Shown here: positions 1-56,917 of the stretch, piece after piece
Layout of the letters: every line of letters begins with the position of its first letter
Numbering within the stretch: the first letter of the stretch is position 1
Source: Candidatus Woesearchaeota archaeon
GTDB lineage: Archaea > Nanobdellota > Nanobdellia > Pacearchaeales > GW2011-AR1
Length of the DNA: 58,485 nt
Assembly (NCBI GenBank): GCA_964389765.1
Contig: CAYMES010000002.1
Span: 1 to 58,485, forward strand
Direction of reading: 5' to 3'
Translations under genes and position numbers: made by a program
The notes under the pieces: model-generated
What the model was told of the DNA's origin: nothing
The model's input: only the letters and a program-made list of their open reading frames with translations
Databases searched by the model: none

Positions 1-153
1 CCACTACTGATAGCAAATATGATATTGCATCAAGACCAACAGAATTAAGTTCTGGCGGATATGTTGACATAACAGATTAAAGTTAATTTTTTATTTTTAT
101 TTTTATATTGTTCTTAATAGCTTTTGATTCTCCCCAAAAAAAGATTATTTCAT

Positions 154-176
154 CTTCTTTCTTAGGAAGAAAGAAG
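154..176. other. Perfect 10-bp stem / 3-nt loop hairpin at the outer edge of the cassette array
   Basis: cttctttctt-agg-aagaaagaag read directly. On the minus strand a T-run follows about 11 nt later, so it may terminate array transcription. Confidence 0.3.
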
Positions 177-186
177 CAAAGAAGGA

Positions 187-470
187 CGCGCACACCTCAA
201 ATTTAATGGGATGGCTAAAGGCCCACCTAAACTAAGAGAGATTTTAGAAATATCATAAAGGAGAATTAGAAACTCAAGCCACATTGCATTCTCGCCTACG
301 GCTCGGGTCGTTGAACAAGGCTTAAAGAGTTCGCTCGTTGCACTTAACTCTCCCAAATTAATTTCTCATCCAGCTCGTAAACTCGCGGGAGAAATTAACT
401 TTCCTTATCCCCAATGTTCAACTCAATAAAATTCTAATTGTTAGAAACGAGCGGGGGAGCCCCACCTCAC
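187..470 (-). repeat. Inter-cassette structured element E0 (attC-like, composite)
   Basis: GC-rich non-coding block sharing ordered motifs with E2-E4: gttgaacaRSgMttaaagag, GTTGCAC at 337-343, ctcccaaatt, a perfect 10-bp stem ttaatttctc/gagaaattaa, and aatgttcaactcaat. Its right end GAGCGGGGGAGCCCCAC (449-465) is the inverted partner of 1354-1371. Confidence 0.6.
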
Positions 471-485
471 GCTTCGCGTGAAAAG

Positions 486-1283
486 TCAAAGAATTCTAAA
501 CATCGGAAAATGAGCCCCTTCTTCAGTAGCTATAGCCTTTCTATGTTGTTCAATTCCATTACGTACACCTTGTTCAGCTCTTTGGTTTTTTCCTTCAACT
601 TCGGCAAGTCTTTTTTCCAAAGTTCTCATCTTAATCATTGCGTAAGGAATTTGAGTTGCTTCATAAATTTGTCTTTCTGGAATTCCTAAATAAGGTGTTT
701 CAAAACTCAAACTTAATTTATTTGTTCCAGGCAGAGATAATTTTGCAACTTCTTCTTCAATTCTATATGCAAAATCTGTTGCTTCTGTTGGTGTGTAATC
801 TACTTTTTTTGTTTGTGGAAATGTCCCTTCTCTATTATAACATCTTAAAGCAACTTCCCCATTTTCCTCATCTGTTAAAATATGTTCATCAAAATAATAA
901 CTTTTTCCCAACTCTCCAATCAATAAGGCTAATAAAAATGGATTAGATTCCATATCCTCATTTGTTAATCTGTTTGAAGGTCTGACAGCTCCCATATCTC
1001 TAAATGTTTTCCAACGAACTCTCGTGTAAATCCATTTTTCATCAAAACTAAATCTTTTATCTTTTTGTAAGGTTTCAAGAACACCTTCTAATTGTCCTCT
1101 ATCAAAAACCAAGAATTCTGTGCAATTATGCAAGTGATCTTCTCTTTGAAAACTTTCTCTTGCATATCCACTTTTTTCCAGACCATCATATAGGTCAGGC
1201 ATTGTAGCAATCTCAACAGAAGCAGTTCCATATCTACGAGTATTTGCCCAAATACTATCTAATTCTTGAATTCTTTGACTCAT
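486..1283 (-). CDS. Hypothetical protein (cassette ORF 1)
   Basis: 265-aa ORF with non-repetitive sequence, visibly higher G+C than the host background, and no motif I recognise. It is flanked by a 17-18 nt inverted repeat. Confidence 0.6.
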   Translation of the reverse strand: MSQRIQELDSIWANTRRYGTASVEIATMPDLYDGLEKSGYARESFQREDHLHNCTEFLVFDRGQLEGVLETLQKDKRFSFDEKWIYTRVRWKTFRDMGAVRPSNRLTNEDMESNPFLLALLIGELGKSYYFDEHILTDEENGEVALRCYNREGTFPQTKKVDYTPTEATDFAYRIEEEVAKLSLPGTNKLSLSFETPYLGIPERQIYEATQIPYAMIKMRTLEKRLAEVEGKNQRAEQGVRNGIEQHRKAIATEEGAHFPMFRIL

Positions 1284-1353
1284 ATAATTCTGTTATTTTA
1301 AACACTTTAAAAATCTTTCTATATATTACTACTAAATAATAACTATTAAAATA

Positions 1354-1474
1354 GTGGGGGCTCTCCCGCTCTAAAAAATAGTGCCTTCGGCATTATCTCT
1401 AATTAACAATTAAAATTTTACTCTTCGCCAGCCCTACACTTCGTTTCGGGACACATAACAAGGCTTAGTTTTAA
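1354..1474 (-). repeat. Inter-cassette structured element E1 (attC-like, short)
   Basis: GTGGGGGCTCTCCCGCTC at the left end, a tgcc-ttc-ggca hairpin (1382-1392), and ggcttagttttaat abutting the stop of the next ORF. Confidence 0.45.
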
Positions 1475-1789
1475 TTATTTTTTAGGTGCTAATTCTCTAA
1501 ATCCTTCTAAATTTCTAAAGAATGTATAGCGAACATGGTTAAATTCGGTTCGAGTTTCAAAAACACTTGCAAGAATCATGTTCCCATATGATAGATAATT
1601 GATTCTATCATCTGTTATCTGTGTAGAATTATATGCCAATTCACCTGATTTTATCTCAAATTCTGATTCTTTCACATTATATCTTTTTTGAATGAAAGCC
1701 CTTGTTTCAAGAAAAAAATCCTCAATAGTTTTTGAAACTCTGTGTTGTTCGCCAGTATTTACTATGAGGGGGTTTGGAATTAGATTCAT
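1475..1789 (-). CDS. Hypothetical protein (cassette ORF 2)
   Basis: 104-aa ORF between two structured elements. No recognisable motif. Confidence 0.45.
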   Translation of the reverse strand: MNLIPNPLIVNTGEQHRVSKTIEDFFLETRAFIQKRYNVKESEFEIKSGELAYNSTQITDDRINYLSYGNMILASVFETRTEFNHVRYTFFRNLEGFRELAPKK

Positions 1790-1841
1790 AATAGGATGAA
1801 AATTTCTCTAGTTTAAATAGTTGAATGTATTCACTTAAAAA

Positions 1842-2077
1842 ATAACTCTAAATTTTCCCTTCTGGGACGTTGCACTAAAATTCAATCCCTAACGGGAGAA
1901 TATAACAAGGATTTAGAGGAAAATTCCTGCTGAATTTTCCGAAATTTTTTCTTTCAGAAAAAACTCTCGAGCGTTCCGCAATTTTTCCAGCTCTGACTTC
2001 GTCGAGGGAAAAATTTCTTCACCTCAAGCCCTTCAGGTTGCTTAATCGCGATGTTAGTTTCAATCAGAGTTGGTGCC
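1842..2077 (-). repeat. Inter-cassette structured element E2 (attC-like)
   Basis: Contains GTTGCAC (1869-1875) in a ggga..tccc hairpin, a 9-bp stem aatttttcc/ggaaaaatt around AGCTC..TTCG, and gatgttagtttcaat. Its terminal cagagttggtgcc touches the stop codon at 2078. Confidence 0.6.
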
Positions 2078-2713
2078 TCAAAGTTCCAGCAGTTGTCTTA
2101 ACCCATACAAAGAATGAATTGTAAGAGAGGGATTTATATCAGGGAATTCATGTTCCCCTCTTACTAAAAGAACATCATACACTTGTGCATTTTTTGCAGT
2201 CGCCACATCTTCATCCGCATTTCCTACATAAATAGCTTTGCTTCTGTCCACTCCTAATATTTCTAAACATGATTCTAATCCATGCGGATGTGGTTTTGGT
2301 TTTATTCCATTTGAAGTTTGGGCAAGAATTACACTATCAAAATCTCCTTCGCCCAACATTCCAATTTCAAGAGACGCAATATGCATTGGTGCACCTGTAA
2401 CTATTCCTGTTTTATAGCTATTTTGTCTTAGTTCTTTTACAAAATCCACATCATCATACAATTTTGTGAATTGTCTTCTTAGTTCTGTTGTATCATGTTT
2501 TCTATATGTTTCCCAAAATTGTTTAGGATCTAAGCCAAAATGTTCTTGTATAATTGCATCTCTTCTAGCTTCAAACCAAAACCTATCAATATTACGATTA
2601 GAAGATGTGGCTCCTAAATCCTTTAATGTTTGCCCTAATATTTGATACCTATATTCAGGAGTAGTATGCACAAGTGTTCCATCCAAATCAAAGACAACTG
2701 CTTCATATATCAT
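2078..2713 (-). CDS. HAD-superfamily phosphatase (phosphoglycolate phosphatase-like), cassette ORF 3
   Basis: N-terminal VVFDLDGTLVHT (DxDGT motif I) and C-terminal YVGNADEDVATAK (motif IV), 211 aa. Confidence 0.8.
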   Translation of the reverse strand: MIYEAVVFDLDGTLVHTTPEYRYQILGQTLKDLGATSSNRNIDRFWFEARRDAIIQEHFGLDPKQFWETYRKHDTTELRRQFTKLYDDVDFVKELRQNSYKTGIVTGAPMHIASLEIGMLGEGDFDSVILAQTSNGIKPKPHPHGLESCLEILGVDRSKAIYVGNADEDVATAKNAQVYDVLLVRGEHEFPDINPSLTIHSLYGLRQLLEL

Positions 2714-2750
2714 AATAAAATAGAATTAATAGGACTTATAAAAAGATATC

Positions 2751-2964
2751 GGCACCAACTCTGACTTTGGATTTCCCTTTAGGGATTGTTGCACTAAAAA
2801 TCAATCCCTGCAAGTATTCGGGAGAGTTGAACAGCGATTAAAGAGCTCCGAAACCTTGCAGGTTTCTCCACCCAAATTTTTTCTTCAGCTCTGTTCCGCT
2901 TCGCTACACGAGGAGAACTCAACTTCTGTTAATGCAGATGTTAAACAGCATTTGAGTTGGGGCC
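2751..2964 (-). repeat. Inter-cassette structured element E3 (attC-like)
   Basis: Starts ggcaccaactctg, the perfect inverted copy of 2065-2077. GTTGCAC (2788-2794) sits in the loop of the agggattg/caatccct stem. It also carries the gttgaacagcgattaaagag block and ends gatgttaaacagcatttgagttggggcc. Confidence 0.65.
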
Positions 2965-2965
2965 T

Positions 2966-3585
2966 TTAGGCAGTTTTTCTCTGCAATTCCCTAACTGATA
3001 ATTTAGAAAGAACTTCTTCTAATCTTACTTCTTCAACATTTCTTAAATTATCCGAATTTCTTGAAAAATAATTTACAGGACAAACTGTATCTAAGTTTAG
3101 TTGAGGAACTAATGGCTCTAAAAACTCATAAAGATGTGGGTCGCTCCGATCAATAGCATATGCTACGGGAACATTTACATCTAATCCAAATCTTGTGCGA
3201 AGAGAACTCCTCTCCTAGCACCACTTCGATTTCCTCCTCTCTCGATTATTCGGTAAAGAACTTGTTGATCAATATCTTGTTCTGATAAATCTAATCTCGG
3301 AAATCCAAAATCTCTAGAGTTCTGAAACTGCTCCCATGTAAATGTTTTTTCTGCATCTGCCGTTCTTTGATTTTCATTTTCCATCCAATGACCATAATAA
3401 ACAGAAGGCCATCTCATCTCAGCATAAACTGCTTTAGATTCAATGAAATCTTTTAATTCTCTTGGAAAATGGAACTCTCCTATATCTGTGACAATATGGG
3501 CTTGTCTCAATGATCTATCATATTGTGCTATGAAAGTATCCACTTTATGATTTAAGTCATATTTTTGAAATTTTGAATTTACCAT
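2966..3585 (-). pseudogene. Hypothetical protein, apparently frameshifted (cassette ORF 4)
   Basis: The 134-aa ORF 3181-3585 stops at 3181. A second start-less frame is open from 3214 to 2966 (83 codons, protein-like, ..PVAYAIDRSDPHLYEFLEPLVPQLNLD..) and ends 1 nt from element E3, as in the other cassettes. Confidence 0.5.
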
Positions 3586-3641
3586 TGTTTATTCTTTAAA
3601 CTAGTTATTCTACTAAACTTTAAAAACTTATTGATTTCATA

Positions 3642-3797
3642 GACCTTAACTCAAACGCTTTGGATTTTCTACAAAAATTCTCGGGGAAGTTGCACTTCGC
3701 TCTCCCAAATTTTTTTCTCAGCTCTCACTCGCTACGTTCGTGGAGGAGAAAAAAACTTCCCTTAAGCCCGATGTTAGTTGCAATTTGAGATTTGGGC
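3642..3797 (-). repeat. Inter-cassette structured element E4 (attC-like)
   Basis: gaccttaactcaaacgc left end. 45 nt (3653-3697) are nearly identical to 5048-5092 and include GTTGCAC (3689-3695). It has a 10-bp stem tttttttctc/gagaaaaaaa and ends gatgttagttgcaatttgagatttgggc. Confidence 0.65.
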
Positions 3798-3853
3798 TAA
3801 AAGATAGTCAAAATCTTTGATTTTGAAAAAAATAATAAAAAAGAGGTTGGTAT

Positions 3854-4207
3854 CTAAAAATTAAGTGGTTCTTGAACACCTGATTCTCGTATCTTGTCAG
3901 TCAATTCTTTTCTGACACCTGAATCTTTAATTCTTCTTGCTTTTGTAAGACCAACAGATTGTTCAGTACCTGAAGCATGTAATGGCTCTAATAGTTCAAC
4001 CACATTAACAGTTCTGACTCTTGAACCAAAAGATGTATCATATTCATTTGTTTGAACAAGCACGTTCATACCTTTATATTGCATTACATCCTCTCTTAAA
4101 GTTACAATATGATTATCTCTTAAGGGTCCTTTTGTACAGCTCGCATGTAGATATTCCATTTTATTTACCTCCGTATATTTATTTCTAACAAAACCAAAGA
4201 TATACAA
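3854..4207 (-). CDS. Hypothetical protein (cassette ORF 5)
   Basis: 117-aa ORF between E4 and E5. No recognisable motif. Confidence 0.45.
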   Translation of the reverse strand: MYIFGFVRNKYTEVNKMEYLHASCTKGPLRDNHIVTLREDVMQYKGMNVLVQTNEYDTSFGSRVRTVNVVELLEPLHASGTEQSVGLTKARRIKDSGVRKELTDKIRESGVQEPLNF

Positions 4208-4208
4208 G

Positions 4209-4361
4209 TATTTAAATCTTTCGGTTTTTTACTACTATTAAGTTAATAAAAATAACTCCAGAATTCTGAACTAAAAATCCTTCGGATTTTGTTATGCTGC
4301 GATCTCCTCGTTTCACTCATAGGAGTGTATAATAAATGTTATGCTTAATCTAGATTTAGGC
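4209..4361 (-). repeat. Inter-cassette structured element E5 (attC-like, short)
   Basis: Perfect 7-bp hairpin aaaatcc-ttc-ggatttt (4274-4290). It ends aatgttatgcttaatctagatttaggc directly against the stop codon at 4362. Confidence 0.5.
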
Positions 4362-5000
4362 TCATTTGTATGGAATTATTAAAGAATCATTCATTCCATC
4401 AGATTTCCAAGATTGCGCAAAAACCTTTTTTGAAATCTTTTGATATGCTTTGTTTTTTGGATAAATATTGTGAAGATAAAAGTTCTTATCATCAAATCCA
4501 ACTACCACCACATAGTGTGGCCAAAGTTTATCTACATTACATGGGACAGCAATATTGAGATATAATAATACTGGCTTTTTTTGTCTAATATAATTTTCTA
4601 TATCTTTTAATGTTGGATTTTTTCTTATGAATTTATATCCAGAAAATTTTTCGCATTTCTTCTTGAATTTTTTTTCATATTTTTTTGCTCCAAATTTTCT
4701 TAGAAATTCTTTAAATCTTTTTGAATATTCTTTTTGTTCATAAGAAAAAGTATCATATTTATTTATGTAATCCACCTTAAATCCTTTTGATAGACAAAAA
4801 AAGACCAAACCTTCTGGAGAAGTTCCTCCTGAATTTTCTGCCTTCCCTTTTCTTTTTGGTGTATCTGCCCTGCCAACAATTTCTTCAACAGAACTTCTGT
4901 CTTTATAATATCTCAATATTGAAGCTAATGCTATTGGGCCACACCAACCATTACCCTTCCACTTTTTCAAATTTCTTACAAATGGAACCTTTATCTTCAT
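4362..5000 (-). CDS. Papain-fold cysteine peptidase, C39-like (cassette ORF 6)
   Basis: NGWCGPIALASILRYY (catalytic Cys context) and WPHYVVVVGFDDKNFYLHN (His context), typical of the Peptidase_C39_2 type. 212 aa. Confidence 0.55.
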   Translation of the reverse strand: MKIKVPFVRNLKKWKGNGWCGPIALASILRYYKDRSSVEEIVGRADTPKRKGKAENSGGTSPEGLVFFCLSKGFKVDYINKYDTFSYEQKEYSKRFKEFLRKFGAKKYEKKFKKKCEKFSGYKFIRKNPTLKDIENYIRQKKPVLLYLNIAVPCNVDKLWPHYVVVVGFDDKNFYLHNIYPKNKAYQKISKKVFAQSWKSDGMNDSLIIPYK

Positions 5001-5037
5001 TATGAATAAAAAAGAGGTTTTGTTTTATAATATTATC

Positions 5038-5150
5038 GTCTAAATCTAAACGCTTTGGATTCTCTACAAAAATTCTCGGGGAAGTTGCACTTTTCTCCTT
5101 CTAGTCTTAAGGATATTTAACAGGAGTTAATTTCAATTTAGAACAAGTCC
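5038..5150 (-). repeat. Inter-cassette structured element E6 (attC-like)
   Basis: gtctaaatctaaacgc left end (inverted partner of 4345-4361), 45 nt shared with E4 through GTTGCAC (5084-5090), then a different right half ending gttaatttcaatttagaacaagtcc. Confidence 0.55.
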
Positions 5151-5193
5151 TATCTTGTAGAATAGAACTTTGCCCAAAAGAAAAATACTGTAC

Positions 5194-5490
5194 TTATTGT
5201 TTTCCGAAGCTTAATTCTCTAGTTTGTTCTGTATATGCTTTTCCAGCTTTGTAATTATTTCCAATTCTTGATCTTCCATTCTTATCTTGATTTGGAAAGA
5301 AATGAGGATTATAAAATGGACTAACATGCTCATTGTCATAAAGAACACTTCCATCTTTTGTAAGAATAGATATGATTGCAACAGGTAATCCAAGAAATGG
5401 AAATCCTATTGTACTTTTAATAATTTTTCTTCCCTGAAAAATATCCCTCTCTTGTATCTCTTCAGGAACTCTTTCTAAATGAGTTACCAC
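5194..5490 (-). CDS. Hypothetical protein (cassette ORF 7, GTG start)
   Basis: 98-aa ORF with only a GTG start available. It is flanked by the direct repeat TTAGAACAAG (about 5137 and about 5497). Confidence 0.35.
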   Translation of the reverse strand: MVTHLERVPEEIQERDIFQGRKIIKSTIGFPFLGLPVAIISILTKDGSVLYDNEHVSPFYNPHFFPNQDKNGRSRIGNNYKAGKAYTEQTRELSFGKQ

Positions 5491-6017
5491 TAAATTAGAA
5501 CAAGGTGTTACCTTCTTTAATTTTACTCTGATTGATTTTTGTTAATTCATTTGATTAACATAAGTAATACTCACAAATTTTCCAAGATATTCTGGAAGTC
5601 TTTCCATTGCTTCAATTCTTTCAGCTTGATTCATCATTTTAATTACTTATAAGCCAAATATAAACTAATTTCTACAAATCTTTTTATTTATTACCACTTT
5701 AAAGTTACTTTCTTTAGAAAGATTTAAATATAGGAAAAAGATATTTTTTGTTATGTATATAGATAATTCTGCACAAGAAGATTATGAAAAAGCTCAAGTT
5801 TTTAGAATAAATGTAGCTTTAACTAGTTCAGCAGATGTAAGAGAAAATTGGTTAAAAGCAGCTACTAATTTAAAGCAAGCAGCTGATATAAATCAAAAAA
5901 CTAAATAGGAAAAGCAGAAGCTTAAAGAAGCTCTGCTTAAAGCAAGAGCAATTTTAAGTTATTTAAATTAGATAAATATTTCAAAAACTTTATAATCTAG
6001 CTTCTTATTTTATTTTT

Positions 6018-42546: not shown

Positions 42547-43218
42547 TTATAGAATTTCTACTATATCTCCAATATTTTTATTTAGTTTATATAGTTTAGG
42601 AGGACGATGAGAAACATCTTTTTTTAGTTCTTTTGTAGGTTTGACAAGATTAAGTGAGAAGATTTTTTTTCTGAAATTTCTCTTGTCAAATTTTTTGTTA
42701 AACACAATTTCATAAATTTTTTGTAGGGATGTTAGGGTGAATTTTTTTGGAAGTAAAGAAAAAGCAACAGTAGTATATCCAAATTTCCACTTTAATCTTT
42801 TGATAGCATATTCAAGAATCTCTTGATGGTCAAATGCAAGTTGAGGAAATTTATAAGCAGAAAACCATCTTGCATCAGATGCATCTGTAGAAGCCCTTAA
42901 TTTTTGTTGTTCTGATTTTATTAAGACAAAATAAGCAACTGTTATAACTCTTCCTCTTGGATCTCTTTCTGGATTTCCAAAAGTATATAACTGTTCTAAA
43001 TATGCAGTTTTAACTCCTGTTTCTTCTTCTAATTCACGTTTAGCAGCTTGTTCAAGACTTTCATCAAGATGAACAAATCCTCCAGGAAGTGCCCATTTAT
43101 CTTTAAATGGTGCAACTCCTCTTTTAATAAGTAAAACTTTAAGATCATTATCTTTAATAGTGAATATAACTATATCTGCAGTTACTGCTGGTTTTGGAAA
43201 ATCTTTAAGATTTTTCAT
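42547..43218 (-). CDS. nrtR: NrtR-type Nudix-related transcriptional regulator (Nudix plus C-terminal winged helix)
   Basis: WALPGGFVHLDESLEQAAKRELEEETG Nudix box, FDHQEILEYAIKRLKWKFGYTTVAFSLLPKKFTLTSLQKIYE C-terminal domain, and position at the end of the NAD cluster. Confidence 0.75.
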   Translation of the reverse strand: MKNLKDFPKPAVTADIVIFTIKDNDLKVLLIKRGVAPFKDKWALPGGFVHLDESLEQAAKRELEEETGVKTAYLEQLYTFGNPERDPRGRVITVAYFVLIKSEQQKLRASTDASDARWFSAYKFPQLAFDHQEILEYAIKRLKWKFGYTTVAFSLLPKKFTLTSLQKIYEIVFNKKFDKRNFRKKIFSLNLVKPTKELKKDVSHRPPKLYKLNKNIGDIVEIL

Positions 43219-53209: not shown

Positions 53210-56200
53210 TTAAAATAATTTCTTTTGTCTGCTTCCTTGAACAATTTCTTCTATAATTTCTTCAACATTTACATTAAAAACTTTGAAGATATTTTCAACA
53301 GCAGGTTTTATTTGATTGTTTAAATAATAAGAGATATCATATCTACCTTTTTCATTTGGAAGTTTTACTCTTTCTCTTACTAATTGTTTTGTTTTGCTTT
53401 TTCCATTTTTTGTTTCTGCAACATAATATTCTATTAAATCTCCTTGTTCTGCTCCTATTCCTTGTTCTTCCATTTTTAAAGCAGCTATAACATGAGGACC
53501 TTTAGCTATATATTCAGAAAGAGGTTTTTTTAACTGTGTTTTAATAATTAATTGTTTTTTTTCTATATTTTTATTTTTTACTTTTTTAATAGTTTTTTTT
53601 AGATATTTAAGAGCAGATTTTTCATTTCCATTTTTTAAAATAAGTTCTAGAACTTTATTTTGTAATTCACGAGCAAGATTACACCAGTCTCTTCTTACTG
53701 TTTCAAATCCCCTTACTTTTAATTGTTTGTTATAATCAATTAAAGCATATTTTTTCTTTGCTCCTGTTGAAACAGTTCTTTTTGAAACAAATAATCCTCT
53801 TTTATAAAAATCTTCTAATTCAAGTTCCATTATTCCAGGCAACTTAGAGTTTAGTTTATTTAAAAATTCAAGAGTTTGTTTTTGAGTTTTGTTATTTAAG
53901 AGAAACGCGATTGAGTCTGTGTTATGAACTAAGACATAGTTAGCAAAGAATCTATGATTATCTCTAACCTCAATATCATAAATGTAATTAGGAGTTTTTA
54001 TTTTTTCAATATTTTTAACATTTTGTATATCAAATTCAAATTGATTTACTATACTTTTTTTCAAACTTTTTGAAGTTACTTGTGCTCTTTTATTTTTTCT
54101 TTCTAATAAAAATCCAATTTTTTCTGCAAATGCTTCTTTATTTTTTACTATTATATTTTTCGAATAACTATCAGAGCTATAAATTCTATCTTTAGTTTTA
54201 TAAGTGTTTTTAGTATTTTCTTTAAATACAGAATGAGAAATTCCTATCCGATATAGTAGTTTCCTAGCTTCTTTAATATAATCTTCTCTAACTGAGGTAT
54301 ATTTAATTATTGGAGCTCCTCCTCTTAACATCACACATCCATTAGCTGAAAATAATCCTCTAAGGAATGAAGCAATATTTTCTTCTTTTTCATAAAATAA
54401 CCATCTAGGAATAATCTTTTTTTTGCTTTTCCTACAGTTATTAAAAACCAAATTCACTAGTTTAAGCCCATTAACTACAATATCTCCTTTTTCTCTTTCC
54501 CATATATTTTTAATATAACCTTTTTTTTGTAAAGGAGTTATTAACTTGTTTTTTAATTCTTTAGTGTCTTTTCCTGCAGAAATCCTTAAATAATAATTCT
54601 TGCCATATTTATTAGGCATAAAACTTCCATCACCAATAAAATAACCTAAGAATTCATATATCTCTTTTGGATACTTTTTCTCTTTAGAATTTTCACAATT
54701 AATTTTTTTTAATGTGATTATACTATTTGCTTTTTCCTTTACCTCTCCAGGTTTTATTTCAATGAGCCTCTTAATTGGATTTTGTTTTTTTTCATTACTT
54801 TGATTGTGTTTTGTGGATTGATAACCAATTAAAGAGTGATCTTCAGTAACATCAATATACCAATGATTTGTGAACCAAACCCTATAAATTTTTTTATTGC
54901 ATTTATGCCTCATTACATAAACAATTGGTTTAAACACAGAATTTCCCTCCTTATCAATAGTTAGCACCTCAATATTCTTTTTAAAATTATATTCTTTTCC
55001 AAGTCCTGTTTTTTTATCTATCCTTTCAAAAATTTTTTCAATTTCTTCTTCATATACATTGCCTTTTTTTCTAATAAAGATTTTTGTTTTTCCATCAATA
55101 CTGTCAGAATATATAATTTCATAACCTTGTTTTTTTATATTTTCAATTGCATTTAGTATGTTTTCTTTTGCTAATTTAGCAGTAGATGCAGCTGCCTCTC
55201 TGCAATAATATCTTGCTCCAAAATATCCTTGATATCCATAAGCTGCATTTGCTAATAATTTATAAGCATTGCTTCTTGCTTTTGTTATTGGATTTTTATT
55301 TTTATTATATTGTCTTTTATATTGTTTTCTTAAATTAATTATTTCTTTTAACATTTTAGGAAAAAATCCTTGTTTTTTTGAGAAATAAACATTTCCTTCT
55401 TTGTCTAGATTTACTTTAATGATATCTTTATTTTTTAATGTAGATTTATTTTCTATTAGTGTGGAAAGAGATAAATTATATGATACAATAACAGAAGCAT
55501 ACATTGATGTGAAATCAAACATCCCAATATTTTCATATAATCCAGGCAAGGGTTGGAAGACAAATGCTCCTTCATATTTTCCTTTTGCTCTTCTTTTGCC
55601 TATTTCATCGTGAAGAGGACGTTTTTCTGCAATTTCATTATAAAGATGCAAGTTATGTAAGATATAATCTTCTACATGTGCTGACATGCTGTTTCTTGTA
55701 ATTCTGAAAATTGGTTCTTGGATAATATTGGTAAATTCTTGTATATCTGGCCATGTTTTTTTAAATAACAAGTAAGTTAGTTTTGAATCTTGTAAATTAT
55801 ATTTAAAGAAATCTTTCCAGTCATTTTTATCTAGATATTCTAATTTTGAAAAATCAAAATCATGTTTTTTCTCTCCCAATAATTCAGAAGCTATATCATT
55901 TAATCCAAGAGTCTCGCTCTGGAGGTATTGAGAATAAACTGATTCTATAAATCTATAAATGTCTATATGAATTATGCCAGTTATTTTTCCTTTACTTAAT
56001 CTTCCTTTTGAAAATATTGGTTGGCTGTTGTCTAAACCAATATCTAATTTAATGTTGTTATTTTCAGCTGCTGCTCTTAGATATGGTAAGTCAAATCCAT
56101 CTGAAAAATAACCAACTAAAAAATCTGGGTCATAGTCTTTTACATATTTTACAAATTGTTTTAACATTTGTCTTTCACTTGGAAAACTTTGTACAAAATC

Positions 56201-56917
56201 AGGGTTTTTTGAATCAGCAGATTTCCATGTTAAAACTTTTTTAAATTCCTTTTCTTTATTATGTTTATCAGAAGTTTTACCATATAAAGAAATCATTAGG
56301 ATGTCACCTTTTCCAATTTCAAATTTACTTGTTTCTATATCAAATGCAAGTATTTTTGGTTTGAATTTTAGATTTTTTTGTTCTTTTTGTTTTAGTTTTT
56401 TAAAAGAATTTAATTTATAGCAGTTTAGGTCAAGGCATTCAGATAAATAGCCAAAATCTTCACTATCTAACTTTTCAATGTTTACATTATGCCATTTTAA
56501 AGGCAAGATGTTTTTATCCATAATATATTTTGTAATTAGACGCATATCATATTCTCTTCTTGCATATATCTCAGAAAAATCAAGTTCATCTGCAACAGCA
56601 TGAGAATCTTTATAGTTTTCAACAAATATTTTAATGGCTTTATGTTTTTTTCCGAGAAAATTTTTATCATGAATTTCAGTTTTAAGAACTTTTGTTTTTC
56701 TTCCTGCTCTTTCAACCTGGATTTTTTCAATTTTTTGTTTTATTTTTTGAATTTTTTTATCACTTGTATTTTGTTTTAATATTGCCCAGAAATTTGGTTC
56801 ATAACTATCTATTATACAGATTTTTTCATTTTGAGAAGTTCTTCCAAATATCCTTATGTAGTTTTTACCTTTCCAGTCAAAATAATCATAATCAAGAGGT
56901 ATAAATTTGAGGTTCAT
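53210..56917 (-). CDS. polB: Family B DNA polymerase (intein-containing precursor)
   Basis: Exo I FDIET, motif A DFTSMYASVI, motif B KLLANAAYGY, and motif C YSD/TDS split by the intein. The extein is 841 aa. Confidence 0.93.
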   Translation of the reverse strand: MNLKFIPLDYDYFDWKGKNYIRIFGRTSQNEKICIIDSYEPNFWAILKQNTSDKKIQKIKQKIEKIQVERAGRKTKVLKTEIHDKNFLGKKHKAIKIFVENYKDSHAVADELDFSEIYARREYDMRLITKYIMDKNILPLKWHNVNIEKLDSEDFGYLSECLDLNCYKLNSFKKLKQKEQKNLKFKPKILAFDIETSKFEIGKGDILMISLYGKTSDKHNKEKEFKKVLTWKSADSKNPDFVQSFPSERQMLKQFVKYVKDYDPDFLVGYFSDGFDLPYLRAAAENNNIKLDIGLDNSQPIFSKGRLSKGKITGIIHIDIYRFIESVYSQYLQSETLGLNDIASELLGEKKHDFDFSKLEYLDKNDWKDFFKYNLQDSKLTYLLFKKTWPDIQEFTNIIQEPIFRITRNSMSAHVEDYILHNLHLYNEIAEKRPLHDEIGKRRAKGKYEGAFVFQPLPGLYENIGMFDFTSMYASVIVSYNLSLSTLIENKSTLKNKDIIKVNLDKEGNVYFSKKQGFFPKMLKEIINLRKQYKRQYNKNKNPITKARSNAYKLLANAAYGYQGYFGARYYCREAAASTAKLAKENILNAIENIKKQGYEIIYSDSIDGKTKIFIRKKGNVYEEEIEKIFERIDKKTGLGKEYNFKKNIEVLTIDKEGNSVFKPIVYVMRHKCNKKIYRVWFTNHWYIDVTEDHSLIGYQSTKHNQSNEKKQNPIKRLIEIKPGEVKEKANSIITLKKINCENSKEKKYPKEIYEFLGYFIGDGSFMPNKYGKNYYLRISAGKDTKELKNKLITPLQKKGYIKNIWEREKGDIVVNGLKLVNLVFNNCRKSKKKIIPRWLFYEKEENIASFLRGLFSANGCVMLRGGAPIIKYTSVREDYIKEARKLLYRIGISHSVFKENTKNTYKTKDRIYSSDSYSKNIIVKNKEAFAEKIGFLLERKNKRAQVTSKSLKKSIVNQFEFDIQNVKNIEKIKTPNYIYDIEVRDNHRFFANYVLVHNTDSIAFLLNNKTQKQTLEFLNKLNSKLPGIMELELEDFYKRGLFVSKRTVSTGAKKKYALIDYNKQLKVRGFETVRRDWCNLARELQNKVLELILKNGNEKSALKYLKKTIKKVKNKNIEKKQLIIKTQLKKPLSEYIAKGPHVIAALKMEEQGIGAEQGDLIEYYVAETKNGKSKTKQLVRERVKLPNEKGRYDISYYLNNQIKPAVENIFKVFNVNVEEIIEEIVQGSRQKKLF
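53921..55102 (-). mobile_element. 394-aa intein with LAGLIDADG homing-endonuclease domain in PolB motif C
   Basis: Starts SIDGKTKIF after ..IIYSD, has block B VTEDHSL, LAGLIDADG motifs LGYFIGDGSF and FLRGLFSANGCV, and ends YVLVHN followed by TDSIAF. Confidence 0.88.

Follow-up and report, generated by a model that had tools for sequence, protein, structure and literature searches.

A recurrent heptamer in a probable archaeal gene-cassette cluster is best read as a conserved mini-hairpin of attC-type recombination sites

In this work we analysed a stretch of 58,485 nucleotides from contig CAYMES010000002.1 of a Candidatus Woesearchaeota archaeon (the window), in which seven elements, E0 to E6, are interspersed with open reading frames (ORFs). 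Based on their sequence, we assign these elements to the attC type of recombination site and regard them as part of an integron-like cassette array. The heptamer GTTGCAC, found in five of them, is a real and widely conserved structural motif, most plausibly the complement of a mini-hairpin of the d(GCGNAGC) type, with a GCA triloop, on the recombining strand. The region from 80 to 5700 as a whole probably represents integron-type gene cassettes clustered in the chromosome of an AT-rich archaeon. The original prediction, made from the window alone, had likewise regarded the elements as DNA recombination sites of integron (GTTRRRY) type, a view that we uphold, and had taken the heptamer for an invariant crossover site, which we do not.

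First, the heptamer occurs on the plus strand at 337-343, 1869-1875, 2788-2794, 3689-3695 and 5084-5090, each time between genes and exactly where it had been reported, and a sixth copy lies inside an ORF on the minus strand (43110-43116). Six copies compare with 1.22 expected in the window, and 1 of 100 shuffles also reached six; the recurrence of a longer context outside the window is the stronger argument. A scan of species-representative genomes for this 19-base context, common to E0 and E4 (GTTGCACTTNNCTCTCCCAAA), returned 40 contigs of other genomes, and in 39 of the 40 it lay within the same type of element; related loci are referred to below by the numbers L001-L049. The contigs derive mostly from Woese-, Pace- and Nanoarchaeota and from bacteria of the candidate phyla radiation (CPR). 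A profile of the element family (nhmmer), built from the motif-context matches in the other contigs, in turn gave four plus-strand matches in the window (298-437, 1983-2069, 2821-2946 and 3689-3788) and revealed co-oriented arrays in most loci, and a scan of viral contigs with both heptamer contexts gave zero matches. Taxon labels of contigs from metagenome-assembled genomes (MAGs) are uncertain: contigs labelled Methanosarcinales, Bdellovibrio or Gammaproteobacteria (L001, L003, L011, L020, L024, L032 and L033; 30-34% G+C) carry the same sites and may be misbinned DNA of the archaeal DPANN group or of CPR bacteria, so that claims of a spread across domains call for care.

Second, the heptamer varies in a way that keeps its pairing. 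Among 48 distinct copies from the leaders that precede the sites, only the central T and G are invariant; the forms are GTTGCAC (27), GCTGCGC (at least 10), ATTGCAT, CTTGCAG and GTTGCGC (3 each) and ACTGCGT (1), and the window itself holds ATTGCAT, CTTGCAG and GCTGCGA at equivalent positions in E0, E3 and E5, which contradicts the earlier description of the heptamer as invariant. Written as N1N2-TGC-N2'N1', with the structure ((...)), the motif pairs in 99% of cells and shows 20 double changes, and 0 of 500 shuffles were as good; one pair is GC in 40 copies, AU in 4 and CG in 3, the other UA in 32, CG in 13 and UG in 3, and one copy extends to GCCT-TGC-AGGC. Because the sequences are related, such shuffle controls overstate significance, and because the family was gathered with a pattern that fixed the copy in the terminal structure as GTTGCAC, the variation was measured in the leader copy only. 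The compensatory variation indicates that the motif is conserved as a base-paired structure and not as a sequence. We uphold the earlier view that the heptamer is selected and not a product of drift. On the bottom strand it reads N1N2-GCA-N2'N1' (GTGCAAC, GCGCAGC), and both its sequence and its covariation agree with a GNA triloop closed by two base pairs. Mini-hairpins of the d(GCGNAGC) type have the same architecture, a heptanucleotide in which two base pairs close a G-N-A loop, and are extraordinarily stable (PMC13037366, PMC3201870), and the variant GCTGCGC reads exactly d(GCGCAGC) on the bottom strand, the d(gcGCAgc) hairpin that has been studied directly (PMC3201870). In contrast to these models, the commonest form here is GTGCAAC with a T-A closing pair, and its setting would be the inside of a recombination site.

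Third, 39 of the 40 loci share one site architecture, which runs from a leader through R'', a single A, L'', a first hairpin or block, CCCAAAT, a second and variable hairpin, AACTTC, L', GAT and R' to NCAAT. The leader measures 60-80 nt and is laid out as ACTC, a GAA-capped hairpin, C-heptamer-TCTC and TCGGG. In an alignment of 78 sites the boxes are R'' RYYYAAC and R' GTTRRRY (GTTGCAC itself matches the latter at 6 of 7 positions, as had been noted), with L'' of the form GGGCTTAA(A)GGG, for example. The L boxes are paired in 83% of cells of a sequence-based (HMM) alignment, with GC/CG/AT swaps, compared with a shuffle maximum of 75% and 41-60% in slid controls. In 49 of 53 elements the bottom strand is more stable than the top strand, whose purine fraction is 0.43. 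In addition, among 141 triloops on stems of 4 bp or more, 63 read TNC on the top strand and 2 read GNA; as a consequence, it is the bottom strand that carries GAA (28), GCA (24) and GTA (10) caps, and the heptamer is one of many GNA caps in these sites. The same TGC loop also caps longer stems at the tip of terminal hairpin 1. Mobile-integron attC sites, whose anatomy of R and L boxes has been defined, likewise have a bottom-strand terminal loop that is mostly GAA and a purine-rich bottom strand that favours strand selectivity (PMC5027507). The RYYYAAC/GTTRRRY boxes, the covarying L boxes, the Y-shaped terminal structure and the more stable bottom strand are the grounds on which we assign the elements to the attC type. 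We infer that the mini-hairpin acts in single-stranded DNA, with a role in folding or strand choice: most likely it would, together with the GAA and GTA caps, nucleate and stabilise extrusion of the bottom-strand hairpin, and it may mark the R''-side arm and thereby lend the site strand asymmetry. A home-made attC finder (AAC...GTT plus arm folding) proved strand-symmetric and unspecific and was dropped. In related loci the sites form co-oriented arrays of 2-8. Separately, L035 holds at 60-174 two elements head to head, in which R' GTTAAAT is followed by the reverse complement of a leader (..GAGAGTGCAACGG..), a pair that would form a very long palindrome.

The seven elements of the window, all on the plus strand, are as follows.
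272-422 (+): E0, an intact attC-type site with its 5' leader (nhmmer E=4e-27)
272-309: E0 leader, with the mini-hairpin variant ATTGCAT at 283-289
310-316: E0 R'' GTTGAAC, followed by the L'' arm at 317-329
337-343: E0 heptamer of the terminal structure; the junction motif CCCAAAT lies at 352-358
358-367/389-398: E0 hairpin 2, followed by R' GTTCAAC at 416-422
1420-1470 (+): E1, a collapsed site whose leader, starting from ACTC at 1420, has no heptamer
1453-1459: E1 R'' ACATAAC, spacer AAGG and R'-like CTTAGTT at 1464-1470
1845-2059 (+): E2, an attC-type site with leader (nhmmer match 1983-2069)
1869-1875: E2 leader heptamer, with R'' ATATAAC at 1900-1906 and R' GTTAGTT at 2053-2059
1918-1940: E2 hairpin 1 with the tip TGC; hairpin 2 at 1980-1988/2007-2015
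2764-2946 (+): E3, an attC-type site with leader (nhmmer E=4e-8)
2788-2794: E3 leader heptamer, in the loop of the stem 2781-2788/2802-2809
2826-2832: E3 R'' GTTGAAC, with CCCAAAT at 2871-2877 and R' GTTAAAC at 2940-2946
2850-2866: E3 hairpin 1, a 7-bp stem with a TGC triloop cap (CTTGCAG at 2855-2861)
3644-3779 (+): E4, a 5'-truncated site without R'' and L''
3689-3695: E4 heptamer; leader and heptamer are fused straight to the interior of the terminal structure, TTCGCTCTCCCAAA
3710-3719/3746-3755: E4 hairpin 2, then L' and R' GTTAGTT at 3773-3779
4262-4344 (+): E5, a collapsed site whose leader is 83% identical to that of L010
4274-4290 (+): GAA-capped hairpin of the E5 leader, with a decayed mini-hairpin GCTGCGA at 4296-4302
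4327-4333: E5 R''-like GTATAAT, spacer AAAT and R' GTTATGC at 4338-4344
5039-5132 (+): E6, a collapsed site with a full leader and the heptamer at 5084-5090
5115-5121: E6 R'' ATTTAAC, spacer AGGA and R' GTTAATT at 5126-5132

The R boxes pair at 7 of 7 positions in E0 (310-316/416-422) and at 6 of 7 in E3 (2826-2832/2940-2946), and the bottom strand of E0 is predicted to fold into an R-box stem with a Y-shaped tip (-18.2 kcal/mol, z -3.2, compared with -14.0 for the top strand). In E2 the arms pair imperfectly, and BLAST matches its pieces to L036, L030 and L015. The mini-hairpins with TTC(G) loops and the perfect 9-10 bp stems that had been described (358-367/389-398, 1980-1988/2007-2015 and 3710-3719/3746-3755) are present. 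The stems around the heptamer, which had been described as differing between copies, are independent only in part: E2 is homologous to E3 and has its 3' arm in common with it, one 5' arm serves both E4 and E6, and the E0 stem is idiosyncratic. Among these stems only that of E3 has some folding support (z -1.8), the support for E2 being weak (z -0.9). E1, E5 and E6 have the collapsed form R''-4 nt-R'; E1 is without L boxes or a terminal structure and has no stable fold (z +0.8). A regular expression for R''-spacer-R', which was too permissive, gave no convincing collapsed site apart from E6, and the collapsed form therefore seems peculiar to this window. The collapsed sites (1453-1470, 4327-4344 and 5115-5132) have the same form as the junctions at the primary attachment sites (attI) of related loci, ..TTCGATTAAAAGGT|GTTAAAC.. 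(L029, L040, L023 and L044-L046), and they could possibly be double-stranded core sites instead of mere deletion scars.

Fourth, the loci of other genomes reveal the position of the cassette junctions. In the related arrays, complementarity between the variable part of R' (six bases) and the R'' of the next site averages 4.6 of 6 positions and is perfect in 11 of 21 cases, compared with 2.9 of 6 for R' and its own R'' and 2.66 at random, which places the crossover at G|TT of R'. By analogy with integrons, a tyrosine recombinase would exchange cassettes by cutting G|TT of R' in the folded bottom strand. In the window the true R' boxes lie on the plus strand at 416-422, 2053-2059, 2940-2946, 3773-3779, 4338-4344 and 5126-5132. 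Moreover, 14 of 21 cassettes elsewhere are bounded by a perfect inverted repeat of 11-16 nt (control mean 6.3 nt), whose left arm begins 4 nt past R' and whose right arm abuts the leader. Folded in silico, circular cassettes form one long stem composed of the inverted repeat, a 10-bp R box, a 2-nt bulge, a 12-bp L box and the Y tip, with the leader as a branched insert on the R'' side.

A tyrosine recombinase gene was found in 7 of the 40 loci, always upstream of the array and divergent from it, and a search starting from recombinase homologues led back to the same site family and layout in 5 of 6 loci. Beside the divergent recombinase lies an attI site to which the first cassette is joined at GTT (L017, L023, L029, L032, L040 and L044-L046; ...GGT|GTTAAAT); L032, whose taxon label is doubtful, thus also carries such a recombinase. 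The recombinases are 259-290 aa long and, judged by sequence models, XerA-like: they score 227, 245, 234.5 and 214 bits with NF040815 (NCBIfam XerA; cut-off 220, passed in 3 of 4) and 178-206 bits with TIGR02249 (integron integrase; cut-off 265), the latter match falling into two stretches. Pyrococcus XerA (4A8E) aligns in one stretch (residues 10-262, 168 bits) and VchIntIA (2A3V) in two, and about 42 aa are missing relative to residues 191-257 of IntI1. The IntI-specific domain, which these proteins appear to lack, is thought to be indispensable for reading folded attC. As a side observation, the XerA-like gene is directly followed by SRP54 in L044 (7001-9221) and L045 (7001-9191), both Pacearchaeota-like contigs, so that there the recombinase looks like a resident chromosomal gene and not like part of a mobile element.

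These results bear on the original proposal that the heptamer is itself a site-specific crossover point at which element halves are exchanged. E4 and E6 do share their leaders at 44 of 45 positions (E4 3653-3697) up to GTTGCACTT, as had been stated, and E4 breaks exactly at 3689: at least 30 BLAST matches of E4 in other genomes, with up to 95-99% identity, all start at this base. Independent cases of the same leader-to-interior fusion, with leaders that differ from one another, are found in L003, L005 and L031; L036 and L014 share 32 identical nt through the heptamer plus TCTC and then diverge; and the bottom-strand GTGCAA|C resembles the RYYYAA|C cleavage box. In addition, in the window, L001 and L009 the inverted repeats match and the R boxes do not, which implies an exchange somewhere inside the leader. 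However, when breakpoints were mapped in 81 elements, the ends of similarity tracts were concentrated at R' (+2/+3 and +11 to +13) and at R''/L'', with hardly any directly after a heptamer; four E4-type elements account for all 26 tract ends that start at the heptamer. Cassette junctions in related genomes obey the R' rule, the heptamer is absent from the attI sites of complete loci, and neither a loop nor a 2-bp hairpin is a duplex substrate for a recombinase; compensatory variation also suits a structure, while the core of a crossover site would have to be homologous in both partners. Deletion between direct repeats explains the E4 type equally well, since the two copies of a canonical site, one in the leader and one in the terminal structure, form 8-nt direct repeats about 58 nt apart, between which the R''/L'' segment would occasionally be lost. 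We infer that E4 would have arisen in this manner, by a deletion between two heptamer copies that removed its R''/L'' arm. A metagenome scan with the E4/E6 leader (AATTCTCGGGGAAGTTGCAC) returned three matches, one leader-like without a site and two due to chance, and did not reveal an intact parent of E4. Taken together, we consider the heptamer an occasional point of deletion or exchange rather than the crossover site of cassettes, a role that we hold to be quite unlikely.

The conserved mini-hairpin could alternatively be a recognition element for a protein, either the XerA-like recombinase or an accessory factor; as an arm-type or accessory site it would replace the extrahelical bases of classical attC sites and fix orientation and strand. 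The constraint on the motif is compatible with such a role, given that the loop keeps its T and G in every copy, the flanking C and T are more than 90% conserved, the stem covaries, the position about 25-35 nt 5' of R'' is fixed and both copies lie on the R''/L'' arm. It would also suit a recombinase without the IntI domain for extrahelical bases and sites that miss the normal unpaired spacer. On the other hand, many members have no terminal-structure copy or other loops in its place, some leaders (E1, L027/4265 and L038) are without the motif, the general excess of GNA caps suggests a generic role in folding, and binding to the mini-hairpin is putative. On this balance we regard a recognition element as unlikely, and prefer the reading of the mini-hairpin as a folding aid of the attC-type site.

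Could the elements instead act as RNA, as stabilisers in untranslated regions, terminators or processing signals, with the heptamer as an RNA loop motif? The inverted repeats that flank the ORFs could pair in a transcript, the T·G variants are compatible with G·U pairs, and 3 of the 7 ORFs of the window have a promoter-like motif of their own. Yet Rfam, which holds no attC family, matched none of its families to the elements and returned only a tRNA, and the hairpins are capped by triloops and not by UNCG or GNRA tetraloops; UNCG tetraloops were rejected since the hairpins are of odd length. The GNA bias affects the strand that is antisense to most cassette ORFs, the ORFs can point either way relative to the element, and the R'/R'' rule between neighbouring sites, the adjacent recombinase and attI are signatures of DNA recombination. 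A function as RNA thus appears highly improbable. Several other candidates were set aside as well: REP/RAYT (repetitive extragenic palindrome and its associated transposase) or IS200-type hairpin elements, as an HUH transposase is absent and the junction rule agrees with crossover by a tyrosine recombinase; arrays resembling clustered regularly interspaced short palindromic repeats (CRISPR), as the spacing is irregular (about 0.75-1.45 kb), lengths and sequences differ and the intervals are whole protein-coding ORFs; and archaeal bulge-helix-bulge processing of the ORF-flanking repeats, which are explained by the stem of the circular cassette.

Some of our own results weigh against an attC-type site with a stabilising mini-hairpin. 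In the window only E0 folds significantly better than shuffled sequences, with E2, E3 and E4 weak, and adjacent sites break the R'/R'' rule, with 0-3 of 6 positions as counted from the coordinates. In classical attC sites the L'' arm bears extrahelical bases and each arm has about 5-6 nt of unpaired central spacer (PMC5027507); here the spacer is 1 nt (A) opposite 3 nt (GAT), with a predicted 2-nt bulge and almost nothing left unpaired, and the extrahelical bases are inconsistent, in that an extra single A occurs in L'' of the GGGCTTAA-A-GGG subtype and is absent from the others. With regard to the mini-hairpin, the T·G of 3 of 48 leader copies pairs on the top strand or in RNA and is a C·A mismatch on the bottom strand. 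Most copies have the T-A closing pair, and such a cap is probably weaker than d(gcGCAgc), by analogy with the dependence on C-G versus G-C closure, the study of which addressed those pairs and not T-A (PMC3201870). Finally, the IntI domain that recognises extrahelical bases is missing from the recombinase, so that an integron mechanism is an assumption made by analogy.

The gene content of the window places the array in an archaeal host, which encodes a CDC48 ATPase, a family-B DNA polymerase and an Nop2p-type methylase. The cassette stretch has 29-37% G+C in a genome of about 26% G+C, and inverted repeats flank every ORF in it; for the first cassette the left repeat begins 4 nt past R', likewise in 14 of 21 cassettes elsewhere. 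The ORFs and associated features are listed here.
486-1283 (-): cassette ORF flanked by inverted repeats, for which an exact-protein look-up found nothing on record
427-443 with 1404-1420 (94%) and 454-465 with 1354-1367: inverted repeats around this ORF
1475-1789 (-): cassette ORF
2078-2713 (-): cassette ORF, HAD hydrolase (Pfam HAD_2, E=9e-23)
2064-2077 with 2751-2764: perfect inverted repeats of 13-14 nt around the HAD cassette
2966-3585 (-): broken cassette ORF, frameshifted, in the other frame after 3181
3854-4160/4207 (-): cassette ORF
4362-5000 (-): cassette ORF, C39-like peptidase
5194-5640 (-): broken cassette ORF, with an in-frame TAA after 'VNQMN'
1311-1342, 4214-4245 and 5676-5707: promoter-like block, on the ORF strand AGTAGTAA..(A)CCGAAAGATTTATAAAG

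Three of the seven ORFs (486-1283, 3854-4207 and 5194-5640) have the promoter-like block about 25-40 nt upstream of their start codons; by its sequence, it looks like an archaeal TATA box with the recognition element of transcription factor B (BRE). The same block adjoins the leader of a reversed cassette in L010, despite different ORFs. All seven ORFs of the seven-element array are on the minus strand and the elements on the plus strand, hence antisense to every ORF, while 20 of 27 intervals in related loci have an ORF co-oriented with the site and both orientations occur. No tyrosine recombinase was found in the window, and the attI layout of the complete loci is absent from it. Given the missing recombinase, the three collapsed sites, the two broken genes and the antisense ORFs, the array looks like an old, integrase-less cluster in decay.

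Three further observations concern the window. Upstream of the E0 leader, 132-271 is 86-88% identical to the Woesearchaeota contigs L016 and L021 and holds no convincing ORF; judged from sequence, it could represent an ORF-less cassette or a small RNA. At the end of a plus-strand ORF, positions 70-90 (GATTAAAGTTAATT) resemble the attI/R' motif (GATTAAAAGGTGTTAAAC) with a shorter spacer, and could be the left edge of the array or a product of chance. The family-B DNA polymerase of 1235 aa (53210-56917, minus strand) has split polymerase matches (63-635 and 999-1211), and its insert of about 360 residues, with a weak match to the replicative-helicase model (NF005852, PRK07773) at residues 745-958, is a candidate that we suspect to be an intein.

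Compared with known systems, the arrays are most readily set beside sedentary chromosomal integrons, such as the Vibrio cholerae repeats, and clusters of attC sites lacking integron-integrases (CALINs), with which they share tandem single-gene cassettes, imperfect palindromes of about 100-135 bp with R and L boxes, a branched terminal structure, a purine-rich and more stable bottom strand, GAA-type loops, a hybrid R' whose 3' part belongs to the next cassette, near-identical sites across different cassettes, and a divergent recombinase gene with adjoining attI. They differ in the 60-80-nt conserved leader with the mini-hairpin 5' of R'', in the perfect, cassette-specific repeats of 11-16 nt that start 4 nt after R' and extend the stem of the excised circle, in a spacer of about 1 versus 3 nt with inconsistent extrahelical bases, and in a recombinase of about 270 aa without the IntI-specific domain; unlike the expression layout of integrons, the window ORFs are not co-oriented with attC for a common promoter. 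Archaeal integrons have been described by Ghaly et al. (2022), who report attC arrays in DPANN (Nanoarchaeota) and other archaea, mostly as CALINs without a detectable IntI, some attC sites near-identical across domains, and six archaeal IntIs that carry the IntI-specific domain (PMC9668308). Set against that description, the recombinase found here is best classified as XerA and lacks this domain, and the examined parts of that paper make no mention of the leader, the mini-hairpin or the cassette inverted repeats (PMC9668308). With archaeal XerA/dif the system shares the XerA score, Pyrococcus XerA (4A8E) as the closest solved relative and a housekeeping context; unlike XerA at dif, the recombinase gene consistently points away from a neighbouring cassette array whose first junction is at GTT. 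With arms of 7 bp and a spacer of 4 nt, the collapsed and attI-like sites differ from dif, a site of 28 bp (11-6-11), and none of the latter kind was identified in the present analysis. A targeted search of the open-access literature found no description of the leader mini-hairpin, the cassette-terminal repeats, the near-absent spacer or an association with a XerA-like recombinase lacking the IntI domain, and no matching paper on a Xer-type integron integrase in DPANN or CPR.

Finally, these comparisons lead us to a broader and tentative proposal, which we put forward as a possibility: a sedentary integron-like system would be widespread in DPANN archaea and present in some CPR bacteria, and a resident recombinase of the XerA family, about 270 aa long and without the IntI domain, would drive it. 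Its attC sites may be extended, with a branched leader that carries the GNA mini-hairpin on the R'' arm, almost no spacer and repeats that lengthen the stem only in the excised circle, and the leader hairpin would replace the extrahelical bases in the choice of strand and box. Since the recombinase lacks the IntI-specific domain, current integron finders would score such arrays as integrase-less. Integron sites are textbook recombination sites read by shape over sequence, and here a seven-base motif that resembles a sequence signal turns out to be a shape signal, a covarying mini-hairpin. For the window alone the result is modest, namely a decaying cassette cluster in an archaeal chromosome. 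However, if the XerA-like recombinase is the integrase, many 'integrase-less' clusters of archaea and CPR bacteria would be complete elements, and they would represent a living intermediate for the origin of integron integrases from Xer as well as a compact, structure-specific recombination system for testing.

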